64,000 nt of DNA from Iphione sp. A-MEVVRFRX5. Lineage: Eukaryota. Of this stretch, positions 2,990-20,699 are shown piece after piece. Positions within the stretch are counted from its first letter, which is position 1. Every line of letters starts with the position of its first letter. The DNA lies in assembly GCA_976226885.1 (NCBI GenBank), contig OZ320318.1:68448001-68512000 (forward strand), given 5' to 3'. Below the pieces are notes generated by a model. That model was not told the DNA's origin. It saw only the letters and a program-made list of their open reading frames with translations, and did no database searches. The position numbers were made by a program, and so were the translations under genes.

Positions 2990-4250
2990 AGTTCAGATTA
3001 TCGGAAGACTGCTCGATTCATAGTCAGGCAGGCAGCGCGTGCATTATTCATCGCGCATTGTTTACGCCCGAGGCGCGAAAAGTGGCATGAGTGACGCGTT
3101 GGACATTAACAGCGACGACTGCCGCTTCCTCGATTTGCATCAGCTCATCAGACGTCGATGGTAACAACGCCGCCCCCTCCCCCCCTCCCCATCCCAAACA
3201 CCCAGCTCACTCTCTTCCCGCGCACCCAGCGAAACCGCCAACCCCTCCTCCTCAAATACCGCTCCACTCCAGTTTGACCTCGGAATCATTCGACGTCATC
3301 CGCTGAGGAGTTTGGCCGTGCAGGTCAACAAATCAGTTTCTGTCACCGCCCACTGAGCATTTGTATGGACCACGGAGGACTGGTCCGCCGCTCTCCGTGT
3401 GTCAACGGCGCTGTACCCTTTCAGAGTCCAGTGTAATCACACGGCCCTTTGTCAATTAATTACGCCGAGCGCGTTCGCCCGACCGCCTACAGTGGCATGC
3501 AGTCGGGGCGAAGCACTGTACTTCGCCATCCCGCCATCCATTGTTCAACTCGTCTAGCCCGTACTCACCCTCCCTGCTGGTTCGAGCATGTCATACCGTG
3601 GCAAACCCATGCATGATGACGCGCCCCGGCTCAAAGCCTCCAGCCCCTTTCAACCGCAGACAGAGCGGCGAAAAAACGCACTAATCCTTGTTTTTACAAC
3701 CAGCACTGCATGTCCTGGTTCCTTGGGCCTGAAACGATGAGCTGCTCTTCCTCTCTCTCCTCTCTTCGAGGTGTGAGCTCTACTTGTGTGGCTCTGCAGT
3801 CTGTTGGCGTCGTAAAAGCGACGTAAGAGGAGAGGCGCACATCCTCTAGGCGAGCGGCTCCTCCCCAATTCTGGCTGGCAAAACGGACATGCGAGCATGC
3901 CAGCTCAGGGCGTCATAATTTATGCTAAACGCTGGCGAGGAATTAACGCTAAGGCGCTTCTACGGACTCGCGCGCGACAGACTTGGGCTGCGGGTAGGCG
4001 GAAGATGAGTGGGCGGGACTGAGGTGAGCGGATTGGTGCGATAGTCAGGTGGAAGCAGTGTCGACTTGGAAGCTGTATGCTCCTTTCGGCCTGAAGACAC
4101 CACGTGAGGAAGTAATCACGTCGCATGGAGACAGGAGATTACTCAGGCGCAGGAGGAGAAGGGCCGAGACCGAAAGCAAAAACAAAATAATTATACGAAC
4201 AATAGGACAGCTACTACTACTCCCGCAAAACTTTGCTGATTTTGCATCCG
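2990..4250. promoter_or_regulatory. CpG-rich, promoter-like island
   Basis: High CpG density by eye. CGGAAG (ETS-like) at 3999-4004, GGGCGG GC-box at 4011-4016, and ATTGG (CCAAT on - strand) at 4032-4036 are clustered. Confidence 0.35.
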
Positions 4251-5324
4251 TTTAGAACCAAAACGACTGTTCGTAAAACACATTGTAGAGAAGTTATTTC
4301 CTTTAGGTTGTTCGATTAACGCGTTGAAAACACAGCAACTTGACAAGTGCGAATAAAAATCGATGCACATGAAGGAAATACTACAATGTATGCACAAGTA
4401 TACACGCAAGTAACGACTAACCCTTGATGTATAATCTTGACAAAATAAAAGTGTTCACGCCATATCTTTCTTTCTGCATACCTCGAAGGCAATTGTTCAG
4501 GTTAGACTACACCGTAGTTTCATTTGTGCGTCAGTGTGCTGCCCTATTTATCAAGTGGCTTGGGTCAATCACCTTTTAGAGTGAATTCCTAAAACCATTG
4601 TCAAGAAGAGATCTGGTAGAAATACAGCACAGCTGCCGGGCAATTATTTGTATAACTTGTTTACCATCAAGCAAAGAAGCATGAACCGGTACATAAGATG
4701 TAGTATTTTCCAATCTATTCATATTTAATATAAATTGCATAGTACTAGAAGAATGCAACAAAGAAAAATTACGCATAATTTACATCCTGCCTGCGTTTAT
4801 CAACTGAATAGTTGGTAAAGAAGGCCACTCAAGCAGCCGGTCAAGTATAATGGCCAGGTGGCTTTATGGCCTGACCGCTGACCCCATGACCCCGCCCATG
4901 AGCTATCGTCATTTTCTCACACTTCCCTTGCTCAGGACATCAGTATGCGTTGCCTGTCAGGACAATTGCATCATATCAAACATGGGCCTGCTGTTGTCCC
5001 GCAAAGGTCAACATTAACATGATAAGGTCAAAGGAAGGATGAGTCGAAGGTGTGCTCTCGGCACTTAGAGTCCACCCGTCAGGGTACACATACTCCAGAC
5101 GGCTTAACAACTTAATTGACACTAGTCGTTTGCGGCCGTGAAATTATTTCTCACATTTTTCAGTACAGGTGAGGAATTCTTTACCTCACTCTATCATCCA
5201 AATTAAACTGTTTGTCACGTCGACTAATTGACTTTATTAGGACATATTTATCGAGCCTGCAGGGGAATTTTCTTTAGGTCTCTATACTATCTGTGTGTTC
5301 ATCTGTATGTGCACCAATGAGACA

Positions 5325-5393
5325 AATCTATTTACTAACCGAATCTTTCTCACCAGTAATCTATTTATTAACCGAATACTTCTCACCAGTAAT
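5325..5393. repeat. 33-bp tandem duplication
   Basis: AATCTATTTA(C/T)TAACCGAAT(CT/AC)TTCTCACCAGT at 5325 and 5358. Confidence 0.9.
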
Positions 5394-5839
5394 AAATCTA
5401 AACTTATATCTCAAATATAAAACAGCAGCTGCGCAGCATACTGTGTGTAGATAATGGGCACATATACATGTATATGTATTCCCAAATGCAACTTGCATTT
5501 CTGTTACTCCAAAATAAATCCATCTAAACGGAGAGCCTTCTAAACTGCCTAAGATCAATTGAACAAATGTTTTGTTAGTAAAGAAAAAACTATATATTGC
5601 AGATAGATAGAGTGTGAGACACTCGATGAATCTACATGTACTGAGTTGTCTGGTCACTACCGTCACGTGAACAAATAAGGTGTGACTAGATATCCATGAT
5701 TGAAGTCGGAGGGACTCCGTAGATGCCACTTCTTTCTACCTGGTTACCTGACAGTGTTGACTCTAGGTCAGTGTTGCCTATTAATAATAGACCTAGTTAT
5801 AATAGACTAATCCCACCTTGGCCTCTGATGGAGAATATT

Positions 5840-6186
5840 AGGCCCAAAAAAATAGGTGTGTTTCTGATAACCCACCGCTACCTAGTAAAACCTCACCCTA
5901 CCTTAAAGTTTTTTGAAACCATGGAGTCTCAAAGGCTGAATTTCCTTAGATATGTGTTTTCATGATGTATATTTTCAGTAAATGCAGTAGAAAAACAACA
6001 AAATTCATAGAAATTCAATAAAAAAACTGTAAGACTTATGCAAATGGGTCAAAATTCTTCATATTATCTTTATTATTATTGAAAATCAGAGGAAGAAAGT
6101 GTAAACAAATTCAGAAAAAAAAGATACCCCCTTCCCAACCTAGGTTTTTGGTTGGACATTACCAGAGACACACCTTTTTTTGGCCT
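5840..6186. mobile_element. Non-autonomous DNA transposon (MITE) with ~30-bp imperfect TIRs
   Basis: Left end AGGCCCAAAAAAATAGGTGTGTTTCTGATAA; reverse complement of the right end AGGCCAAAAAAAGGTGTGTCTCTGGTAA. AT-rich interior. A second left-end copy lies at 53082. No clear TSD. Confidence 0.7.
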
Positions 6187-6681
6187 TCCCTAAATCTTTG
6201 AATAATAGTTCTATGCCCAATAGCTCTGGTCTCCTATGGAGACCGACTTTGTTTTTAATGCATAGTAAGATGTGATGGGCTACACTGACACCCCTCGCTG
6301 CTATGCATATTTTTTTTCTTGCACATTGTTATGTCACAGCTCCACTTTATGACTGGAATATGTTGATGTGAGCAGCACTGGACTTATTATCTGATGTCTA
6401 AAATATACTATCATTACTATGTATCATGAGTAGTATACTATCTCAAGACATGGACCACCTAAAAATGGTACTTTAACATGTTTTAAGTATACATGTATAC
6501 TCAATAAAATAGATAAGTTCAAAATAGCTACTAGTACATACATTGAAGTCGCAAATCATAGTGGTAGTCAAGTCTTGGTTATATCCTGTCAAATTAGACC
6601 TATGTAGAAGACCAAAGAAAATTTGTCTTTGACAAACTATATACACATATTATATGCTAAGCTGTATGTATCTGCTGTTAT

Positions 6682-6742
6682 GTCCTGGTTATTTTTGCAA
6701 CCAGGACCCACAACCAGAACTGGTTATATTTACAACCAGGAC
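6682..6742. repeat. Two tandem palindromic units
   Basis: GTCCTGGTT-atttttgc-AACCAGGAC followed by CTGGTT-atatttac-AACCAGGAC. Confidence 0.75.
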
Positions 6743-9700
6743 ATTACCCATTTTTGAACGTCCATTTTACCTGGTTTTACACAGATAAAATAAACGTTCG
6801 AAAGCGATGTCCTGTGCAGCTTTAGCTCCCATCTGTGATGTACACTAATGTAGGCCTCTAATGCAAACAATACATCTCTCGATCTGTAGCTCAAACCCCC
6901 CCTCCCCTCTGGGGGCCGCCTGGTCAATATGGGTCGCCGAGACTAATGTTCTCTGATCTCATGACAGTTATGGACGCCAATGAAAACTGGTGGTTCGCCT
7001 TTAGGTTCACTCCTGGATGTATGATTCACAACCTTGTATCCAACAGTTATAGATATTATTTTAGAGAGTATCTCACATGTATATCTATAGTTGTCTGGTA
7101 GGGTGCATACTTTCACTTTATAACGAGTAAGGAACAAGTAATTCAGTATGTATAACCCACTATCACATAATTGCTATCCTAAACTAGGAAGCACGATCGA
7201 AATAGTAGCTATCCAACGTTAAGTCTCCGTCCCTGAGAGACACCATCATCTCACGCCTCCCTTTCGCAAACTCGCCTCTCCACGTCCTCTCAACCCCATT
7301 ACGATTCAGCCCCGAACCCTAAGCCCCTGATTCTGTGATTTGCGCCGGGACACAATGACAAAGTAGGACAGGATCAATGGCATCGACCATGTACTGCCTA
7401 CAATCAGGTCCGCGTCAGTGTGTAAGCGGCTACTCTCTCTCACACAGACACAGGGTTTCTATTACCAGTACCATACTAAATGTGTGTAACATTCTCTCAG
7501 ACCGGCGTCGTTATTGCCGGCCTTCTTTGATCACAGCATCCGCGTGCTTTTACAATTCCACCGGAAAAAGCCGACAAATATAATTGAAATTGTCCCCTAG
7601 ATTCCCACTTTTGGGCTGGTAACTGTAGGGAAGTGAATGGTTGACAGACCATGAACTACGTGATCTTCGCTACACTATATGACACATGTATGATCAAGTC
7701 GTCCGGGCGAATGCTCATTATCCCACTGACCGAGTACTTCCCACGGTGACACACCCCGGAGGGACCTAACATCATCCAACTGACAAGGTTGACAATAGAC
7801 GAGCCCTGGTTTCGAGTGCGGTGATTACTAATATTAGCATCAATTGTTTATAGCAGTTTTATCAGTAACCACAGGCCAAACACTCCGACACACAGTGGTC
7901 AACGACGCTACTGTCATCATGACCCACTCTGTCCTCTGGCTTCAGTAGTCGGGGTCACCTGCCACATCAATGCCACAAGAACTCGCGCACTCATGTATAC
8001 TAAGGTGTTTTTCATGTCCTTATCTCCACCTGCCCATCGTAAGAGCTTCGTTTGCCCTCTTCGTTCTTCAAGAGTCTTTGTCTCGAACTCGTTGGGTTTC
8101 TTTCTTTTTTAGTGTTTTTTTTTTGTCCTCGGCTGTCCTCCAGACTCACTTGTTCTCCCTACTTAAGTTACGGTTTGTTACCTGAGACTGCCATTCCAAG
8201 GTAAAGTTTCCACCGCTTTTCTTTGATCAGTTGTTCTTTTTCTGTCTCTCATTTTCCTTTTGCAGTTATCCTGTCACCCACAGCATGAAATAATTTTAAT
8301 TCTGGATAACAACAAAGATACATGTCCTCATGTATTGAGGTATTTGTATCCAAGCGATTCTTATTGTTATTTGTGCCAATCCAGTGCGCCCCGTTGTGTT
8401 GATGTTTATGTCTCCTGATTAAGTGACATGATGATATCTGCACAGTCGAAGTTCCAGTGTATCATGGACAAAACAAAAAGCTTTTTCTGTAGAATGCGTT
8501 ATTCGTGATGGCAGATTGAGACGGTTAGCGCTAAAACTCATTCCATAACCAACTCGCACAATGGCCTGCTGGCCCCACGGACAATTTAAGCAGGCCGCTT
8601 TCTCCTCCAGAGATTCACGTCAGCTTTACAGACAAAATCGCCTGAAAATACGTTGTTTTGGACCAGCTATAAATTAAGTGACCCATCCAGATCATTAGGA
8701 GCGATAAAGAGTTGAAGATAAATTGTCTCCATTCATGAAAGTGTGAGTTGTGTAAGGTGGTTATAGAGTGCGTAGATAATCAGATATCTTCTGATGGCCC
8801 ATATTCACTCTTACTCTGACACGTGAGAAACTGAAAATTCCCGGTATTCTTTTCCTATATCATGTCCTGAATCTGGCCACAAAAGATTAGCCGGTGTTTG
8901 ATACGTTCTTTTCACACACTACTTCTTTAAAATGCCAGGCCCGGATTTAGTTTACTCTCTCCTCCTCTCGATTTCACTCTCTGTACGTATCCATTTCACT
9001 GTCTCTCCTATAATCGTCGGCCGCCTTTCACTGGACAAGAAAACCGCCAAGTCATCTCATTAAAGAAGTGAGTGACAAGGAGTAAGTTCACAATGAATGG
9101 ACACCATGGCTTACACAGGCGGTCGAATCTCTTGATTCCCATTTCCCTCTGACACCCAGCAACGGTTAAGACCTCTAAAGTGGAAGGATAAGAGGAAGTC
9201 AGTGCGCCGGGATTTGGATTTGACCACGGTGTGTGTGTGCGGTGTGGGAATGCCGAGTAGTGGTCTCCTATATGTGAATAGAGGCGGCTTGCGAAGCCTG
9301 TCAACTGAAGGCATGGCTGGTCTTTCACAGGGCTTCCCCGCTTTGCTGTCAATCTTCCCGACGGGGCTGGGATTGGGGTGGGACCGGGGGGTGGGGAGGG
9401 GGCGTTTGTTGAAGTGGATGGGGTGCTGGAGCTGGGAGGTTTTACGAGAGAAGCAGGAGGCAGCGGTCAGCTAAGGGGATCGATATTCCGGCTGTCGCCG
9501 CTCTCACTGCTAAAATCTATCCACCACCACAGTCTTTGTGGCCGACTAAACCGTAGAAGGTATTGACTTAAACCAACAATGCACTGAGATGCTGTGCGTG
9601 TCTCCGCTTTCAGGCTCATAGACTTCATTCATTCTCCCCCCCCCATCAGAAAAAAGATAAAAGTATACCAAAAGTAATAAGTTTGAATGAGAGCTTAGTT

Positions 9701-11180
9701 TTTAATCATACGCTGGCGCTGCAGAATATACATGGTCTAGCTTTCAAGTGGAAAACCTTCAAAAAAAAGTGGCTCAGTGTTTCACTCAAAAACTGCATTG
9801 CACGTACATGTAGTGGAACCGCCCAACGGTTGTTGCTAACACTTAGACGCAACGGATTATGATGGACAGGTGTTTAAGGGGCCTCCTCAAGCTACGGATG
9901 GTTCTAATCCTGACAGGTGGGGCCGCCTCCTAATGATGACTGAGGCGTGGGCAATTACATGCACTTTACCTGGACGAATTCGGATAGCAGGGTACGTAAC
10001 TAAGGGTTCCGGACAGGCACGACAGGTGGAAAAATGTGGGATTAAGGACCGCCCTGTAAACCAAACCCCGTTAGGTGCCAAGTCCAACAATCAGTTGCCG
10101 TGGCAACCAATGAACGGGGCGGGAACGGTCATACCTGGCCGCCTACATCAACAGTCTACCCTGTCAGCTTTCTTCAGTGACCGGTGCACCTAGCAGCATC
10201 AAAAAAGGGAAAAAAAACACTTACCGTGCACAATTGACTGCTGAGAAGGAAATATCTCTTTTTCCACTGTTATCATTTCCCCTTAACTAATAGTAGGAAT
10301 AATGCGCCATACATGCATGGATCTATATGCCGATGTCCATGCACGTCATACTGCCTACGTCCCTTATTATAGATGCCTAATGGTACCTAAACAAAACCAG
10401 CATTGGCTATACATTTCCTCCTGTGTTTATTTCAATAAGTAAGGGTTCCAACTGGCAACACTCAGCATATCCCGCAGTCACAAACTAATCTGTGTTGCAA
10501 ATGGAAGTCCCTCGCAACTTTTCAGTACTTATTAACAGAAGTGGGAGAAGAATGATACCTTTGGCAGATTGGGCCAGTAACAATACCAATGTATTTCATA
10601 AATAATTAAGAACTACTAAGTGGATTTCCATCTGCCAATATTTAAAGTTCAGTCCAGATAGCTGTACTTGTATGTAGAACATTTCCTTTTTCAAGATAGT
10701 AAATTGCTACTACTCTTTTTGAGATATAATTCCACTTGTATTTTCTTAGTACAAGAAAATAATCGTAATACGTCGTATCATTCAAAGGGTGAGCAAAAAA
10801 TTATATTCGCATTGTAGATAGAAATGGTTCTTGCGTCATGTACAAAATGACTTCTTTGTTATGATAAGAAACGCACAAAAGCAAGAAACTAAGAGGGGAA
10901 TAACTGGTTTCAGTGAGATGCGAAACTATATGTATGTGTTGGAAACGCTGACCTGTCGCACTGTAGCAAAGAACTAAAGAATCCAACATCGGCAACTTCT
11001 GCGCAGTTACCATTACTGACACCTCATTTCATATATATAAACACATGCACTCGCAATGAAACGGAACTACTGAAACCGATAATGAATATCATATATGTCA
11101 TGCAAGAGGACGTCACGGAAATATGTCTGTACGTGAGCAAACTTACTTATATTCCATTTCTACATTTTTTCAAGATATTT

Positions 11181-11603
11181 CTACGACCTGATACCTTTAT
11201 TATGTAGGTCGGCAGTTGATTTTAAACTGTTACATTCAAGTGAACCTTGCTCAGGTTTGAAATTTATCAGCTGATCTTTACCAACTGATAATTTCCTTTC
11301 TAGACAAGATAGAGACTTGTGCTTGCTATCAATAGAAAGGCCTCGACGGGACCTTTCATATGAGGTGTCATACGTCTTGATATCTATATTATGTAGGTTG
11401 GCAGTTGATTTTAAACTGCTACATTCAAGTGAACCTTGCTCAGGTTTTAAACTTATCAGCTGAACTTTACCAAGTGATAATTTCGTTTCTAAACAAGATA
11501 GAGACATGTGCTTGCTATCAATAGAAAGCCCTTGACAAGACCTTTCAGATGATGTGTTATACTTCCTGATGTCTTTAATATGTAGGTCAGCAGTGAAATA
11601 AGT
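11181..11603 (-). CDS. Hypothetical protein or exon with a 63-aa tandem repeat
   Basis: The - strand frame is open across all repeat copies (TADLHIKDIRKYNTSSERSCQGLSIDSKHMSLSCLETKLSLGKVQLISLKPEQGSLECSSLKS, then a second copy). The antisense + frame contains three TGA stops. The period is a multiple of 3. Confidence 0.45.
   Translation of the reverse strand, partial: TYFTADLHIKDIRKYNTSSERSCQGLSIDSKHMSLSCLETKLSLGKVQLISLKPEQGSLECSSLKSTANLHNIDIKTYDTSYERSRRGLSIDSKHKSLSCLERKLSVGKDQLINFKPEQGSLECNSLKSTADLHNKGIRS
11201..11592. repeat. 189-bp tandem repeat, about 2.1 copies
   Basis: TATGTAGGT anchors at 11201, 11390 and 11579; the copies align along their whole length with substitutions. Confidence 0.92.
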
Positions 11604-11881
11604 TTATGTTGAATGATACAAAGTGAACTTAAATTCTTTTTATGATAATCTATTTTATATTTGAAATAAATAATGCAGTATCTGTTTTACTAATATGATC
11701 ACAATCAATAAAGAAACATAAAGCATTTAGCATATTGTATATTTCTTTCTAGTATTGCACAACCTCACCAACATGTGACCACAGTATGTGTTAATGACAT
11801 CAGCATTATTATTAACATATTCCTGATGTTGACTAGATATAAAAAGAAGTGACATCAACAGTTAACTTAATGTTCTGCACC

Positions 11882-14011
11882 ATGGCTCAAGCTGAAGTTG
11901 ATCTATTGAGGAGACTTGTAGCCTCTTTCTCATCCGAGGAGGAACTCATCTCATGGGCTACAGAGAAGGGATTGATGAATAATCCTCTCATATTGGAGAG
12001 ACAAAATGAATTAAGGAACAATCAATTGAACAGTAATGAGGTAAGTTCCCAAAAAAAACCCACATGTTGTACTGTTCTAAAATTACCCAAGCCTCATGAC
12101 TTCACTCATAGATAATCATGTTTCATGTCATATGTATGTATATTCCAGAATTTTAAATTGCAGGTAGACCTATTGAATAATTTATTGCTGCCGACGAGTA
12201 ACACATCCCAAACACAGCAATCTTATTCTTCTGATGATGTCTGCACACCAAACACACAGGATGGTATTGTGCAATCGAAGACAGTTCAAAACACCCTACA
12301 TTCATCACCAACAGTGACGTCAGCAGCAGGGCAAGTCACCAATGCTCCATCTGAGCGCTATGTGGCTATTCCTGGGCCTAGTCATCGTCCAGTGAGTCAA
12401 ATGTGTTCTTGATGGAAATAATAATAATATTAATAATAATAGACTATATGATTCAGTATTTAGTTTTCTTTTTTGGAGGTACAACAATTCACATTTGTGT
12501 GTGTGTGTGTGTTGGTGCATGTAGACTAGATGCTGATAGTAAATATTTTGTTTCCTTGAATTCATCAACTGTGAAAACAGCCAGAAGAAGGATTGATGAG
12601 AATGCCTGAAGCAGACCATGTGCAGAGTCTATATTCACTGTCATCCTCATCATCGGAGGAGTCAGAAGAAGTAAGTTATATCTGATCCATTCGATTCCTT
12701 ACCTGTGTTCGTATAGTAGGCATACTGCAATTTTGTCTCATATACTGGAAGTATGAAGTTCCTGAAAAAAAATCAAAGTGCAACAATGATAACTTAGTTT
12801 TTCTTTTTTGTTTTACAGGTTGAAAACCAACGGAAATGTGACAAGTGTTTCAAGAAATTCAAGCGCCAAGGAAATGCAAGACGTCACAAAGAAAGCTGTC
12901 GGCAATACAAGTGTCATAAATGTACTAGGTCATTTGAAAAACCTTCACTTTTGAGAAGGCATCGTCTAAGTCACTTAGACCCCAAACTGGAAAGAGTATA
13001 TAGAGCCAATCAGCGTCACATCCTAGCCCACCACACTGAGAGAGAAATAACCACAGATTACAACTTCCCCACTAATGATCTCTCACGTGGCCCACAGGAA
13101 CTACAGCAATTTTTTGAGACAATTTTCGAAAGGGAAGACCACACCTTCAAGGTGAATATGTCGTTTGGTATGATATTGTATAATGTGCAGACAGGTGAAT
13201 ATCGTTATTTCATCCCCTATAGTAACAGTATGGTATTTAACGAGTCCATAGTGGTTTCCCAGGCAAGCGACCTGTCTGAGGTAATGGATAGCATCAGAGC
13301 AGTCAACCCCAAGAATTACTTCATCTGGAACCGACCAGACACTAAATGGCAGGTAGCTATGATAACTAATGTCGTATTTTTCATTATGCGGACCACATAT
13401 CTGATGGGGCGAGGGTTCTTTCCCAATTTCATGAGAAATAAACAATGTATTACTTCCTTAGATGACCATAACGATGCTCTTTGCGCCTTTAGATGTCTCG
13501 CCATATGCCATCAAGAAAACGACGTAGAAGGAGCCGTGAAAGAGTACTGTTCGTTGTGGTGTCAATTCCAATCAAATCAAGAAAACCACACGCTGCCTCA
13601 TGACCTGAGTCAATCTTGAGGTGTCGACCTGCGCGACTTGACCCTCTTTGAGGAATGTTTCCAGGTCAGTATATATGTATACGAGTTGAAGATGAATGGA
13701 AGCATATCCGTAATTCGGAAACCCTTTGCTTGTTTTCCCGATACTATGCACCTCAACCTTCATGCCAGTCACCTCTCCTATGTCAGTGACTTCAAGAACT
13801 ATGCCAAGAAGTTTCAGTGCCGTCTCTGCCGGCGTTGTTTCGGTAAGAGACATCATTTCACCAGACACTCCAAAGTATGTCCCCTAAGAACACGCTATGT
13901 GTACCGAGGGGGATATTACAACAGTCCTTCAACCATATTCGATGATCTTGAAGGACTGGGAATAGTTGTTCCACATGAGGAACGGATGTACAAAGATTTT
14001 GCTGTGTTCGA
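11882..14011 (+). pseudogene. Spliced Maverick-type protein-primed DNA polymerase B gene, N-terminal part only (zinc fingers plus pre-exonuclease region), truncated
   Basis: Exons 11882-12040, 12164-12391, 12581-12670 and 12819 onward, all joined by phase-0 GT-AG introns. Exon 4 encodes CDKC-x12-H-x3-C and CHKC-x12-H-x3-H fingers, then FKVNMSFGMIL...RPDTKWQVAMITNV...DALCAFRCLA, an in-frame TGA at 13617, GVDLRDLTLFEECF...HLSYV...CRLC-x12-H-x3-C...GGYY, and ends at FAVFD (start of Exo-I). These motifs match my recollection of animal Polinton pPolB N-termini. Confidence 0.8.
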
Positions 14012-15300
14012 CTGGACCTGTTCCATGTGCCCCCGTCTCAGACGGGTATAACTGAAGAGTATATTAAGGAGTATTCACCCACCGGGGAAATATCTGGAGA
14101 CGGGGTCTTGGAGTTCCATGTATCCAATGGTTCCTTAGATTACATCAGGATGAATAAAATCAGAATGATGGTGGAACTGCAGATCCATGACGACACGGGA
14201 AAGAAGATCAAGGCCGTGGATGACGTCGCCTTCATCAACATGATACCTGCCACAATGTTTCGACAAATGGAACTCTCTCTTCAACAGATGGTGGTCAGCT
14301 TGAGCATTAGAGCAAATTACCCCTACAAGTGCATGATCGATACTCTGCTCAGGACTGGTGTGGCCGACAAGCTGGGATGGATGAGTGTGGCTGGATTGGC
14401 AAAGGACATTGCAGGGAAAATGGACGATGTGAGTGGACTGAAGTTGGCCTACACCTCTAGAAGACAGAAAACGAGAGAAGGGAAGACCGCTCAGTTGATG
14501 ACACGCCTTTTCCTGGGTGTCACCGATTAGAAGAGACTGCTACTTAATGGTGTCAGTCTGAACCTGAAACTCTTCCAATCACCAGAAGACTTCAAACTGA
14601 TGTACCCAAGTCTCACCACTTATGACACTGCAGAGAGTCCACAGGCCAGGACTTCAAAAACCTACCACTTGAAACTGACGAAGGCAGTCTGGAGAGTGCC
14701 TTTCGTGAGGATACACGAGAGCATCATCCTTGCTCGAGAAGGGTCCGGCCATCTATCCTTTCAAATGGACCGACATTCGCGGTTTCACCGTCGCCTCTAG
14801 CAGCTACGAGTTCTCCGGAGAGAACATATTCCAAGACCGAGTCCCCGAATGCCTTGTGGTGGCACTAGTTGATGCGGCGGCATATGCCGGGAATGCACAG
14901 AAGAACCCCTTCAACTTTGATCCGTACTCGGTGAACTATGCCACGTTCGAGGTGAATGGAGTGTCCAGGCCTGGTCGCCCCTTCCAGCCCAAGTTTTCCG
15001 AAGGGCACATAGCCTCGCTCTTCACTGCCCTCTTCGACGCTTTACCTTCCTGGCATCAAGGCGAGCTACCGGCCATCACCGAGGATGACTTCAAGGCAGG
15101 ATAAGCCTTCTTTATTTTCAACCTGAACCAGGAAAGAGAAGAAGAGCTAGCCTCTCCTCTGAAACGAGACTGACCAGAACACCAGACTGATCATTAAATT
15201 TGAAACGGCCCTATCGTCTGCTGTCACCGTACTAACCTGTGGTCAGTTCCCGGCTGTGATGAGTATAGACCTGCATCATAATGTCTCGCTCGTCATCTAG
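14012..15300 (+). pseudogene. Polinton/adintovirus major capsid protein (double jelly-roll, hexon-like), N-terminus clipped
   Basis: LDLFHVPPSQT...EYSP...LEFHV...NYPYK...D*KRLLLNGVSLNLKL...AIYPF...FQDRVPECLVVALVD...YAGNAQKNPFNF...VNG...P(F)QPKF...G*AFFIFNL...RLIIKFETAL...SIDLHHNV. About 430 codons, with stops at 14528 and 15102 and frameshifts near 14733 and 15175. Confidence 0.92.
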
Positions 15301-15320
15301 TTCCCCTTTCAGAGGCCGAG

Positions 15321-15761
15321 ATGCATAGATACCTTAAGAATAATCCTTTCTATGTCAGAACAGACTCTTACCAGAACCTGCCCTCGCACCACGTCTCAGA
15401 CAAAGATCGACCTGCCTTCTATGTCATCAATACGGACAAAGTATGCTCACCAGGTCTTCACTGGGTGGTCATCTATCTGCTTCCTAACGATAGACCATGT
15501 GAATTTTTCAATTCTTTAGGGTGTACACCTGAGCATTATCCAGCACGTGTTAGAAATTTTCTCCTAGCTAATTGTAATGCCAATACTAGATTATAAGGAA
15601 CTCAACCTTTATGTGGTTATTACTGTATAGATTACATTAGGGAAAGTACGAGGGGTGTATCTTTCCTGCACTATATGGAAAGTTTGGTCTATCGTTATAA
15701 GAGCTACCTAAGCAATGATCGTCTCGTGGTTTCAAGAGTGCACAACCCATTCATACCATGA
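15321..15761 (+). pseudogene. Adenain-type (clan CE) cysteine maturation protease
   Basis: YVINTD...PGLHWV (catalytic His), CEFFNSLG (N at the usual acidic position), RL*GTQPLCGYYC (TAA at the expected oxyanion Gln, catalytic Cys). The same frame continues to TGA at 15759-15761. AATAAA at 15935. Confidence 0.9.
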
Positions 15762-15967
15762 TTTCGTACAGTTCTTGATTGACGATTTCTTCCCTCTCAT
15801 GTGAAGAGTCTTGCACATGTATGTCTTGCAGTCTGATTCCCTGCTAATGAGAAACCAAAAAGTTGTATACTATCTATCATGCCTTGATATGTACATGTAC
15901 ATGTATTATTCCAAGGAGAGTGAGGAAAAATGAAAATAAAAATGTCTCTTAATCACTTGTTCTCTGT

Positions 15968-16288
15968 CTGATTTGTTTATATCAGTATAGGTTAGAAGAA
16001 GAAAGAAAAAAATTATATAATACTCACCTGTAGGACCTCTTCACTTCTGGAGGATAATGATCATCTTCTATTTCTTCTTCTTATTACTATGACAATCATC
16101 ACTGAGACCAAGAAAACAATAAGGCCAAGGAGAATGCAACTAACAATAATCCAAGTTGAAGTGATTGAGGTATTTGTGGTGTCAGTGTGTTCTGTCACTG
16201 TTGAAATAGTAGGAGAGTAGGTACTATCATTCACGGTTGGTATATCAGTCCATTGGGTGTGCTGATTCCTACTTTGTTATAAAAGCAT
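15968..16288 (-). pseudogene. Type-I membrane glycoprotein-like gene (Thr/Ser stalk, TM helix, basic stop-transfer), spliced
   Basis: 16288 to 16028 reads MLL*QSRNQHTQWTDIPTVNDSTYSPTISTVTEHTDTTNTSITSTWIIVSCILLGLIVFLVSVMIVIVIRRRNRR*SLSSRSEEVLQ, then a GTGAGT donor at 16027. A candidate 60-bp intron (16027-15968) contains CTAAC and ends in CAG. Confidence 0.7.
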
Positions 16289-17049: not shown

Positions 17050-18300
17050 GGGTTTTTTTTATGCAGCTGCTTCAATCAAAGAATTATCAAATCTGAGCCA
17101 ACAGGGCAAACTTGTACTCAAAATGATACAAGTGGTAGAGCTCTGTGTCAACCTCCCCATTCTTAATGACATGTCCACAGTACACGGGATCGACTTTACT
17201 AGCGTGGTCTTTCTCATTAAAGTCTCACAAGCATTCAATTGTAGGAGGTGAAATGTTGGTCTTGTTACTCCACTCCAGAAGATTGATCATCAACTGGCTG
17301 GCCTCCACAAGTCATTGGAAGCTGATGCGCATGTGGGCAGCATGCAGTACATCACTCCGGGCATGCTCAGGGATACGACATGGTGAGCCTCCATCATCAT
17401 TCTCTAAGCCGCCAAGTCCCCTTGCTTTCATCAAGTTGTGATATTCTGTGGCAAGAAGAAACACATACATCTTCTGGATGACTTCATGCATTGAAATGGT
17501 ATTAGCAGGAAAAGGAACGTACTTGATATTCTCTCCATCAACAAGTTCTTTTTGGGCAGTGACTTCACACATCAGCTGATTAATGAAGATGTTCTTGGAC
17601 CGATGGGTGAATTGGCTTCCATCTGCTTTCGCTCTCACCATATTGTATGTTCTCCTCAGTAGAGGGAAACAAACCTCCTTCTTGGTGTGCTCACGCTCTC
17701 GCTCAGCCAGAGCAAGGAATGAATTGCTTGAGTCTATTGGATGCCTCTTCATATAATCCAGTATACCTTCCACTTCGTGGATCAGGAGGTTGAAGCAGTC
17801 ATAGCTAGAAAGCAGAGATAGTAAACAGGAATATAATACTCTATTTACAAGTACATGTAAACATTAAATGCAAAAATCGAGATTGAATGCATCACAGACA
17901 TTTGTATACATTCATGGATTTCACAAGGAACATAATGGGTAATGGTTAATCAGTGAATATAATTTATGAAGAAAAAACACTTACTTGATTCTTTGAGCTC
18001 CTTCGTCAATCCGTTCGAAACACACATATGTCCTGCTGGCAAAGTCAGCCAGCTCAATGTGGTAGGTCTTTTCTTCAGATTTGACAGTGAGCACATGTCC
18101 ACAAAGAAGACTGTCCCAGTCATTGCCAGCTGTGTCAATTACCTCATGACGGACAAAGAGATGATGAGCAGCTTTCCCTATTCTCCGGATTTACAGATGA
18201 AAATGCAAACCACCATCGGTGACACGAACTCGCTCGGATATGGTCTCCATGGCTGCAGAGCTATAGTGGATGATCCAACAACGTGACAGTAAGGGGTTCT
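17050..18300 (-). pseudogene. Two-exon pseudogene of unknown function (right arm of the element)
   Basis: Exon ...METISERVRV...WDSLLCGHVLTVKSEEKTYHIELADF...GAQRI(N) splices in phase (AA|C) over a 180-bp intron (GTAAGT at 17984, polypyrimidine-TAG at 17805) to YDCFNLLIHEVEGILDYMKRHP...HMRISFQ*LVEASQ...ECL*DFNEKDHASKVDPVYCGHVIKNGEVDTELYHLYHFEYKF. Four in-frame stops before the end. Confidence 0.7.
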
Positions 18301-20699
18301 TATATACACAGTGGTATGACGTAGGCAGTCAGCCTACCTAATCTGAAAAAAAGAATCCTTTCTTTCAGTGTTATCTTGTCCCATAATGCAAATGTAACGT
18401 GTCTGAACACGTCTAGATTGTTATCATCTACACCATTCTTCTTATCTTATCTAATGAACCACTAGAAACTAGTAGACTGATCTGACATCAGCTTTGACAT
18501 ATCTATGTAGCGAATGAGTTTGAACATGTGTGGACAGATACCACCACAGGCAAACAGGTCTGAACACACACTGACAAAAAATGCACAAGATTAACAGTGG
18601 AAATGCTTCCATACCTGATTTCAGTATTCTATTAATTTCATCCTCATATTTCACATTCCATCTAGTGAGATGACACAAGGGTGATAAACTGTACCCTTGG
18701 TTGGTTGCACGGTCACCTTAAGATATAGTTACACAGTAGATACTTATTGCAACTAATATATTCATTGGTTTGGTGGGGTCATATATTTATGTTTACTTCT
18801 ATATGTATTAAAGTAACAGATCTACATACATAAACTCCTTTCGCTTGGTATTGCATCATATACATGTTCATACTTGTTACCACCACTGCGACAGATCAGT
18901 GCTGATGTCATTGGTTGGGATTCCTCATGCAAGGTCAAGTGGAAAATGGAAACTCAAGTGCTTCAAGGAAACTCAAGTGGTTTGCACCCAGATAACCTTT
19001 TTGCACTAAAGGGGGTCTAGGGCAGTTACCTTCATACACTACTCTTAGTGTACTGTTATTTCCGCCCTGGGTTAGATCCTTGATGCGCACATGTTGTTGC
19101 TAGCTGTCTGTCTTTGATGCTGCTCTCAGATACATGTATATCAGATAGGCTTAATTTCCGTACACGTGTTGTTTTCATGGCCATGCCAACGTATTTCCAG
19201 CATGGTTTTTGGTAACTGTGAACAAGAAAAGGAGTGTTTCCTGAGCGCATGTACTATGTAGTGTGTTTTCACAATCACTATTTTCAGATTGGGAAACTTC
19301 ACAGTTTCTACAGTTGAGTATGTTTTCAGTATTGTGAACTTTTCCAAGCAGGCCATGGTGGTAAAACATACATATGGAAATGACGCCTTATTGGAAATGC
19401 TCATTTACATATGATATTATCTTCATTACACATGCAAAAAGCGGGAAAGGCTGTTACTTGGCAGTATATATTACTAGCCGACGTACGTACATAAATGGGA
19501 ACAAGGTTTATGCCCCGCAGTTTCCCTATTCTGGGTTATGACACACTGTGAGCAGGAACGCCATTAATGGCCCACCAGATCACATGCATGTTTGCTAGGA
19601 CCAGTCGCCCCTTTGGTCGCCCATCCATGTTTGTGGCTCTCATCACGAGTGATTGATTACAAACATGGCGTGTGTGTTTGGAGTCTTTGTGAGTGCGTGT
19701 GTGTCTGTGTCTGTGTGGTTTTCTACAACACTGCGGTCTGCAAAAGAAAAAAAACGACGCCAGCGCCAGCGGCGGATTATGACAGCGCATGCCCCGCGGC
19801 CATCTCGGTCAATGAGCCCCGTTAGCAACGAGTGGGCCAAACTGCTCTAACCCATTGACCAGACCGCAGATGGCTTGCCGTGCACGGTATCGCCGAGTTG
19901 CTCTGTTGGTTCTCGCCCTAGACCAGCATGGAATGAGGTTGAGGAATTTTAGCAACGTGGTCAATAAGGACAAGCTCGAAATGGAACAGGGATGAAATAG
20001 GGTTAGGAACGTGGATGGGTACCGGGCCCAACATTGCCTGTGTACATATCATTATTCTTAATGTTCAAACTCGATCTGCGTAACCTGTTGAACTTTATGT
20101 ATTGCTTTGGTTCTATTCGGCCAGTGCTGTTTATCGTTTAAGGTAATCAGGGCCTGTATATCGATGCCCTGGTCACACACTTTCTATGAGTTAGTCACAA
20201 TGCATTCGGAAACTGCGTGTGCTAAATTGGCGAGGAGTGGTTCTCCAGTTGCAGTGCCCACATCTGGACACAGCGGGATAGAAATATATTGAAGGGGAAA
20301 TTGTGTCACATATAAGTTTTTTTTTTTATATTAGCGAAGAGAGGACTAGACTGAATGGCAGCAGGTGGTCTTAGGAGGCAGCACTGGATAGAAACCATTA
20401 CCGACTGGTCAGTACACAGAGACTTCGGTAATTGGCAGGTAAAAATAAGACAAGTCCACACGTGGCACGACCGGAGCGCTACACAGTCAACAGCTGGGAC
20501 ATACCTGATAGCTTAAAATATACGCTCGATCCTCTTCAGACGTTATTGTCTTTGTTATATTACTGTATTTTGAAAATAGTATCGGAAGCACACCTACTGT
20601 TTTAAACTGGACGTTGCATAGCATTACACTTTTCATACATATAAGTGCGATACTGAGAGCTACAGACACATTGAAATGTTTATTTGAGAGGCAAAGGGA

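Follow-up and report, generated by a model that had tools for sequence, protein, structure and literature searches.

Organization of the locus

The window (the whole stretch of DNA analyzed, 64,000 nt of Iphione sp. A-MEVVRFRX5, positions 68,448,001 to 68,512,000 of the forward strand of contig OZ320318.1, assembly GCA_976226885.1) contains a member of an abundant Maverick/Polinton family; the copy is dead and has lost part of its sequence. The gene considered here corresponds to the 5′ portion of a pPolB of Maverick/Polinton type, laid out on the plus strand as four exons. Exon 1 (11882–12040, 53 codons) encodes a three-helix module, exon 2 (12164–12391, 76 codons) a Ser/Thr-rich linker, and exon 3 (12581–12670, 30 codons) an acidic Ser-rich linker. 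The 5′ part of exon 4 (12819–13619, 266 codons followed by TGA) encodes two zinc fingers, the terminal-protein region, and the first half of a vOTU domain. When translated separately, each exon is open in phase 0, giving 425 codons in all, as the earlier note had described, and the introns are of the GT-AG type (donors GTAAGT, GTGAGT, and GTAAGT; acceptors YAG). A TATA-like box lies about 40 nt 5′ of the Kozak-type ATG (11835–11884, plus strand); the two are aligned in close families and form a putative promoter.

Within exon 4, Pfam places a C2H2 finger at residues 30–52, and the earliest Met is codon 114, behind the fingers. The exon carries a 252-bp in-frame deletion near position 12976 that removed the third finger and a basic stretch, so that two of three fingers remain, the number previously read from the sequence. 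The TGA at 13617 falls between the Cys (13473) and His (13770) motifs of the vOTU. If it is read as X, the pPolB frame stays open for 143 more codons, and the segment past the stop (13620–14013, plus strand) holds the vOTU His motif, a further Cys/His finger, and the start of the exonuclease before it breaks off where about 7 kb have been deleted. The modeled segment behind the fingers of a paralogue matches several OTU structures, weakly but repeatedly (Foldseek probability 0.96–1.00, E about 0.01, none at 0.001). The terminal-protein label is putative; it is based on position and on the published model (10.1101/2024.03.18.585575), without a structural match. Exo I, Exo II, and motif B are present in all four open frames compared, none of which was matched by the patterns used for motifs A and C.

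The remainder of the element is recognizable in outline. Two 189-bp tandem repeats (11182–11559) lie near the left end and also occur in close paralogues, where the copy number of this subterminal repeat varies even between close copies. A left terminal repeat was not found in the window copy, and the flank at 10300–11200 is unique in the genome. To the right of the polymerase, the plus strand carries the broken 3′ part of a probable major capsid gene (14012–15300), named by position and size only as it has no Pfam or PHROG match, and a broken adenain-like protease gene (15282–15760) with lesions, whose match to PF00770 (E 0.0055) is below the cut-off and whose position fits. The right terminal inverted repeat (18973–19047) matches, inverted, the left ends of paralogues L036, L038, and L039, which is the terminal-repeat arrangement of a Maverick. 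Other Maverick characters are evident from paralogues, including a PolB with an N-terminal OTU domain (paralogue model and OTU matches) and an integrase with a chromodomain (PF00665 and PF00385 above the cut-off in the close paralogue L076, in a region deleted from the window copy). A close paralogue also gives a weak A32-type match for the packaging ATPase (PF04665, E 0.005, below the cut-off) at a fitting position, and close-paralogue ORFs of 511 and 325 aa occupy the expected capsid place with no Pfam or PHROG match.

Some further observations concern the family as a whole. The open L036 polymerase (oriented 3198–8129), from a close paralogue, ends in a NADAR domain (residues 1502–1628, PF08719, E 5e-11) and has a weak endonuclease PHROG match at residues 984–1036. 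Near the right end of the window copy, the minus strand carries a further apparently multi-exon gene (17130–18440), broken here and without an assigned family. Locus L041 (G000:C11:77411000-77420900) is rearranged, with exon 1 followed by an inverted right-hand region; L039, a broken copy, lies about 30 kb away.

Exon structure in paralogues and the fate of the window copy

A search of the 1.18-Gb animal genome with exon 4 gave 166 matches, from 144 of 1,001 candidates scored, and many of these sit in open frames of about 1,600–1,700 aa. From the match list, we hand-picked 40 paralogous loci that span the identity range, favoring open frames; in this set, chosen with that preference, frames of more than 1,500 aa are open at 31 loci. 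Exon 1 was found at 39 of the 40 loci, each time followed by GAG|GTA, at identities of 36–85% among 17 representatives; at L073, neither exon 1 nor the antisense exon described below lies within reach. An in-frame YAG acceptor stands 3–8 codons 5′ of the first finger Cys in all 21 representatives. Internal exons with common short motifs were recovered in most families, by a search that presupposed phase 0. Sister families have one extra intron that splits exon 2, and the window's family lost this intron by a frame-keeping deletion.

The way in which the copies diverge speaks partly for this exon structure and partly against it. In a test independent of the phase-0 search, within one family, all 7 exon indels are divisible by three, compared to 6 of 25 intron indels (p = 0.0005). 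On the opposing side, across families the indel counts are noisy (8 of 17 are multiples of three), and constraint on exons 1–3 is mild to absent. Between families, replacement and silent changes number 6 and 3 in exon 1, 24 and 18 in exon 2, and 15 and 5 in exon 3, the first two exons being only mildly constrained (ratios about 0.5) and the third close to neutral. The main part of exon 4 shows 14 replacement and 47 silent changes between open families (ratio about 0.08, p = 1e-6).

The exon-1 module is predicted to form three helices (pLDDT 87.6). No known family or relative of it was found, and it is an unnamed module of mobile elements. A profile search matched 56 proteins, of which 18 were read. 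In two of them (P0006 and P0015), a single ORF encodes repeated copies of the module along with the fingers and the terminal-protein region. In the metagenome comparison set of 80 loci, L085 has the same module-fingers-terminal-protein fusion without introns. L083, from another host, has the module, a phase-0 donor, and a linker exon, then an acceptor before the fingers, and in another metagenome group the fingers are preceded by small exons and an acceptor, with no match to the module. Across the matched proteins (P0002–P0057), the module occurs in one to four tandem copies, often beside C2H2 fingers, and two module proteins also carry an endonuclease domain of the non-LTR-retroelement type. 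In a further host lineage, donor- and acceptor-like sites at L118, L119, L136, and L137 suggest an intron in or just before the terminal-protein region.

The earlier note had asked whether this gene is the natively spliced polymerase 5′ end or a truncated DNA-binding protein retained by the host. The first possibility is now well supported by sequence comparison, through introns at equal places in open-frame paralogues, frame-keeping exon indels, and the intronless fusion in other hosts. Altogether, these results suggest that the Maverick polymerase gene is likely spliced natively here. Since the introns are common to open paralogues, they are no sign of host adoption.

Several other accounts of the locus have to be weighed against this conclusion. 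GT and AG are common, and the core genes of vertebrate Mavericks are reported as intronless in the part of the literature consulted (PMC8097293), so the splice signals could be chance or host insertions into a single copy. Conservation refutes this idea, since the donor is identical in 39 of 39 exon-1 copies reaching down to 36% identity, and we give it practically no credence. Exons 1 to 3 could instead be a separate small gene, with pPolB starting inside exon 4; distinct ORFs upstream of PolB, such as the “Oncoid” ORFs, are described in the adintovirus text available (PMC8502044), and a Met does precede the first finger Cys in 6 of 36 open frames, although it is absent in the other 30. Yet a donor ends exon 3 and an in-frame acceptor opens exon 4, no same-strand terminal exon is conserved in intron 3, and the module shares one ORF with pPolB in P0006, P0015, and L085. 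We therefore regard a separate gene as quite improbable.

Domestication, in which a truncated zinc-finger/terminal-protein gene was kept at this locus, draws on the open run of 425 codons, on the intact state of its splice sites, ATG, and TATA box, and on a 252-bp deletion that preserves the frame. The other element genes are indeed disabled, as had been stated, with eight lesions in total (two stops and two frameshifts in the capsid-sized ORF, one stop and one frameshift in the protease, and two stops in the minus-strand ORF). The suggestion that the pPolB gene was spared by comparison does not hold, as its frame continues past a private TGA and it suffered both the 252-bp loss and the loss of about 7 kb at 14013. 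Codon 13617 is a sense codon in all six relatives compared, the outcome of a check that had been proposed, and TGA 13617 is therefore a private nonsense change. A 425-codon open run has a probability of 0.11–0.23 in a stops-only simulation; at the lesion rate of the element's other ORFs it is only 0.03–0.065, which favors domestication. The run is somewhat lucky but short of extraordinary. Scored at sites where five relatives agree, the private changes of the window copy comprise 22 replacements in 651 sites and 6 silent changes in 165 (pN/pS about 0.93), indistinguishable from neutrality (p = 0.82) and thus without purifying selection after insertion. Moreover, the window copy alters 5 of 52 invariant columns, compared to zero or one in 17 of 18 representatives, its third finger and basic stretch are lost, and the stop splits the vOTU. 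Retention of a truncated DNA-binding protein thus lacks support, and we judge domestication very improbable. Behind the stop (13620–14009), the private changes are 6 silent and 3 replacement (p = 0.036 compared to the part before it); this apparent constraint, which counts against a dead copy, may be due to chance or to recombination between copies.

An antisense exon in the third intron

Intron 3 of pPolB contains a conserved motif on the opposite strand, which we read as a terminal coding exon of seven codons and a stop with a PDZ-ligand-like end (12738–12761, minus strand). On the minus strand, a pyrimidine tract and AG precede the seven codons and the stop, and 35 nt beyond the stop there is a donor-like site (12702). 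The seven-codon exon occurs in 33 of 39 stretches (three weak matches dropped). Five of the remaining six have instead a 14–15-codon exon that ends in W-E-S-S/T-V and overlaps a polymerase exon, bringing the total to 38 of 39, compared to 0 of 280 control windows. Codon positions 1–3 have majority base fractions of 0.73, 0.85, and 0.48, respectively, among 16 representatives, and all three stop codons are used. The combination of most variable third positions with all three stops is a coding signature.

S/T-x-V/I/L stands directly before the stop in 36 of the 38 antisense exons, and the other two have an extra Cys. A class I PDZ ligand is defined by S/T-x-V/I/L at the C-terminus, and the predicted end of the antisense product is like such a ligand. 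The exon lacks a start codon and would have to be joined to a phase-0 donor. The antisense exon inside the polymerase intron is new here, and this interlocking is the main interest of the locus. A minus-strand acceptor-like site just inside intron 2 (12392–12420), kept in several families and altered in the window, may mark an exon in the 3′ untranslated part of the antisense transcript.

A candidate source of the phase-0 donor lies beyond the protease. There, the minus strand encodes part of a type I membrane protein (Thr-rich stalk, transmembrane helix, and basic stretch), with a phase-0 donor and one stop in this copy (16028–16279), and a 28-codon exon with a phase-0 donor-like site at its end, past which the read-through is unconserved (15757–15840). 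The membrane gene ends in such a donor-like site in 12 of 17 pairs under a strict pattern, and in one more, while the read-through past it varies from 1 to 18 residues. The distance from the donor exon to the antisense exon is 10.2–10.8 kb; in the shortened window copy, the donor at 15756 and the acceptor at 12762 are only 3 kb apart.

On balance, we think that the antisense exon probably completes the membrane protein across the core module, by way of an intron of about 10 kb. Among the 18–39 acceptor-like sites between the donor and the far exon, the antisense acceptor is the top-ranked site in only 3 of 12 elements and is below threshold in one; because of this ranking, the direct join to the membrane gene is something we infer. 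That several of the intervening sites score higher, and that translation could run on past the membrane-gene donor to a stop close by, would fit an antisense exon that belongs to another minus-strand transcript or is reached through intermediate exons. This arrangement appears rather unlikely, though it carries real weight; against it, the read-through is unconserved, the phases match, the PDZ-like end suits a cytoplasmic tail, and a non-exhaustive search saw no other conserved upstream exon.

Proposed expression and comparison with known systems

Taken together, the comparisons make it highly probable, in our view, that the locus is a dead Maverick/Polinton copy whose polymerase was likely spliced by the host, and that the TGA at 13617 is a nonsense mutation confined to this copy. 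In the intact element, a host Pol II transcript would start at the TATA box near the left end, and splicing would supply the sole upstream start codon for the fingers. In this way, the polyprotein of fingers, terminal protein, vOTU, and polymerase would receive a helical module and a flexible linker from the three short exons. According to the published model, the vOTU would cut behind the terminal protein, in which case the module, linker, fingers, and terminal protein would stay on the DNA ends, with the fingers perhaps contacting the DNA and the helical module perhaps a partner protein. One reason why the last intron has been kept may be that an opposite-strand gene has its final exon there. 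The best candidate for this gene is the one for the membrane protein on the far side of the protease, whose product would acquire a PDZ-binding end via an intron of about 10 kb.

More tentatively, and with slightly less confidence than doubt, we propose an adenovirus-like splicing program on two strands. The membrane protein near the right end would be completed by a join over the whole 10-kb core (protease, capsids, integrase, ATPase, and polymerase) onto the short PDZ-ligand exon within the polymerase intron, each gene would thereby preserve the other's intron, the antisense transcript could silence core genes, and the surface protein could engage host scaffolds.

Descriptions of Mavericks treat the core genes as intronless, and each is annotated as one ORF. 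Should the polymerases begin in upstream exons, current pPolB annotations for these lineages lack the genuine N-terminus with its unnamed helical module, and the elements would rely on transcription in the nucleus and on splicing by the host, as do the related adenoviruses. With the antisense exon there is a tangible explanation of why a compact, virus-like genome retains introns. As a caution, an intron-bearing open frame that is cut at its first stop can mimic domestication.

Published accounts, as far as their text was available to us, contain little on this subject. The term “splic” does not occur in the consulted text of the adintovirus paper (PMC8502044), nor do “intron” or “exon” in a term search of the coral paper (PMC11131425); the portions seen of the nematode pPolB paper (10.1101/2023.08.22.554363) hold nothing relevant on splicing, and those of PMC5803895 and PMC11071296 add nothing to the comparison. 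The text of 10.1101/2024.03.18.585575 lacks “zinc”, “splic”, and “intron” and does not treat the region upstream of the terminal protein.

In its gene content, the element resembles the animal Mavericks/Polintons described, in the sections consulted, as adintoviruses with a Beta-type PolB (PMC8502044 and PMC8097293), sharing the OTU-bearing PolB, the rve integrase with chromodomain, and the terminal repeats, together with a candidate ATPase and a candidate adenain-like protease, both from matches below the cut-off. The classic PolB Pfam family is unmatched here, as is described for the Beta class. The gene also agrees with the TP-vOTU-pPolB polyprotein model, as far as seen (10.1101/2024.03.18.585575), in its beta-sheet domain, its OTU-like domain with Cys and His motifs, and its exonuclease motifs. 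Intronless core genes, in contrast, are a described Maverick trait (though no taxonomic criterion) that the conserved GT-AG introns of pPolB contradict. Unlike the adintoviruses as described there, this pPolB has three to four predicted 5′ introns, together with the helical module, three zinc fingers, the C-terminal NADAR domain of L036, and the antisense exon.

Spliceosomal introns inside Maverick-like elements have precedents in the texts consulted. Introns are reported to be absent from the Maverick genes of vertebrates (PMC8097293), nematode Mavericks are reported to have intronless core genes and intron-bearing cargo (10.1101/2022.07.12.499685), and introners are inserted in dinoflagellate elements (10.1101/2025.03.18.643946). 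The nematode and dinoflagellate introns belong to captured cargo genes or are inserted transposons, whereas those described here are apparently inherited introns of a core replication gene. A further parallel is adenovirus, in which, according to the passages seen (PMC2794291 and PMC7851563), Pol and pTP begin in a 9-nt exon located kilobases upstream. As with E2B Pol/pTP and UXP, replication proteins would start in an upstream exon, and the joins would span kilobases that hold opposite-strand genes. In adenovirus, Pol and pTP are separate proteins that gain 3 codons from the exon, whereas here 159 codons would join one polyprotein of an integrating element, and the long intron would belong to a membrane-protein gene.
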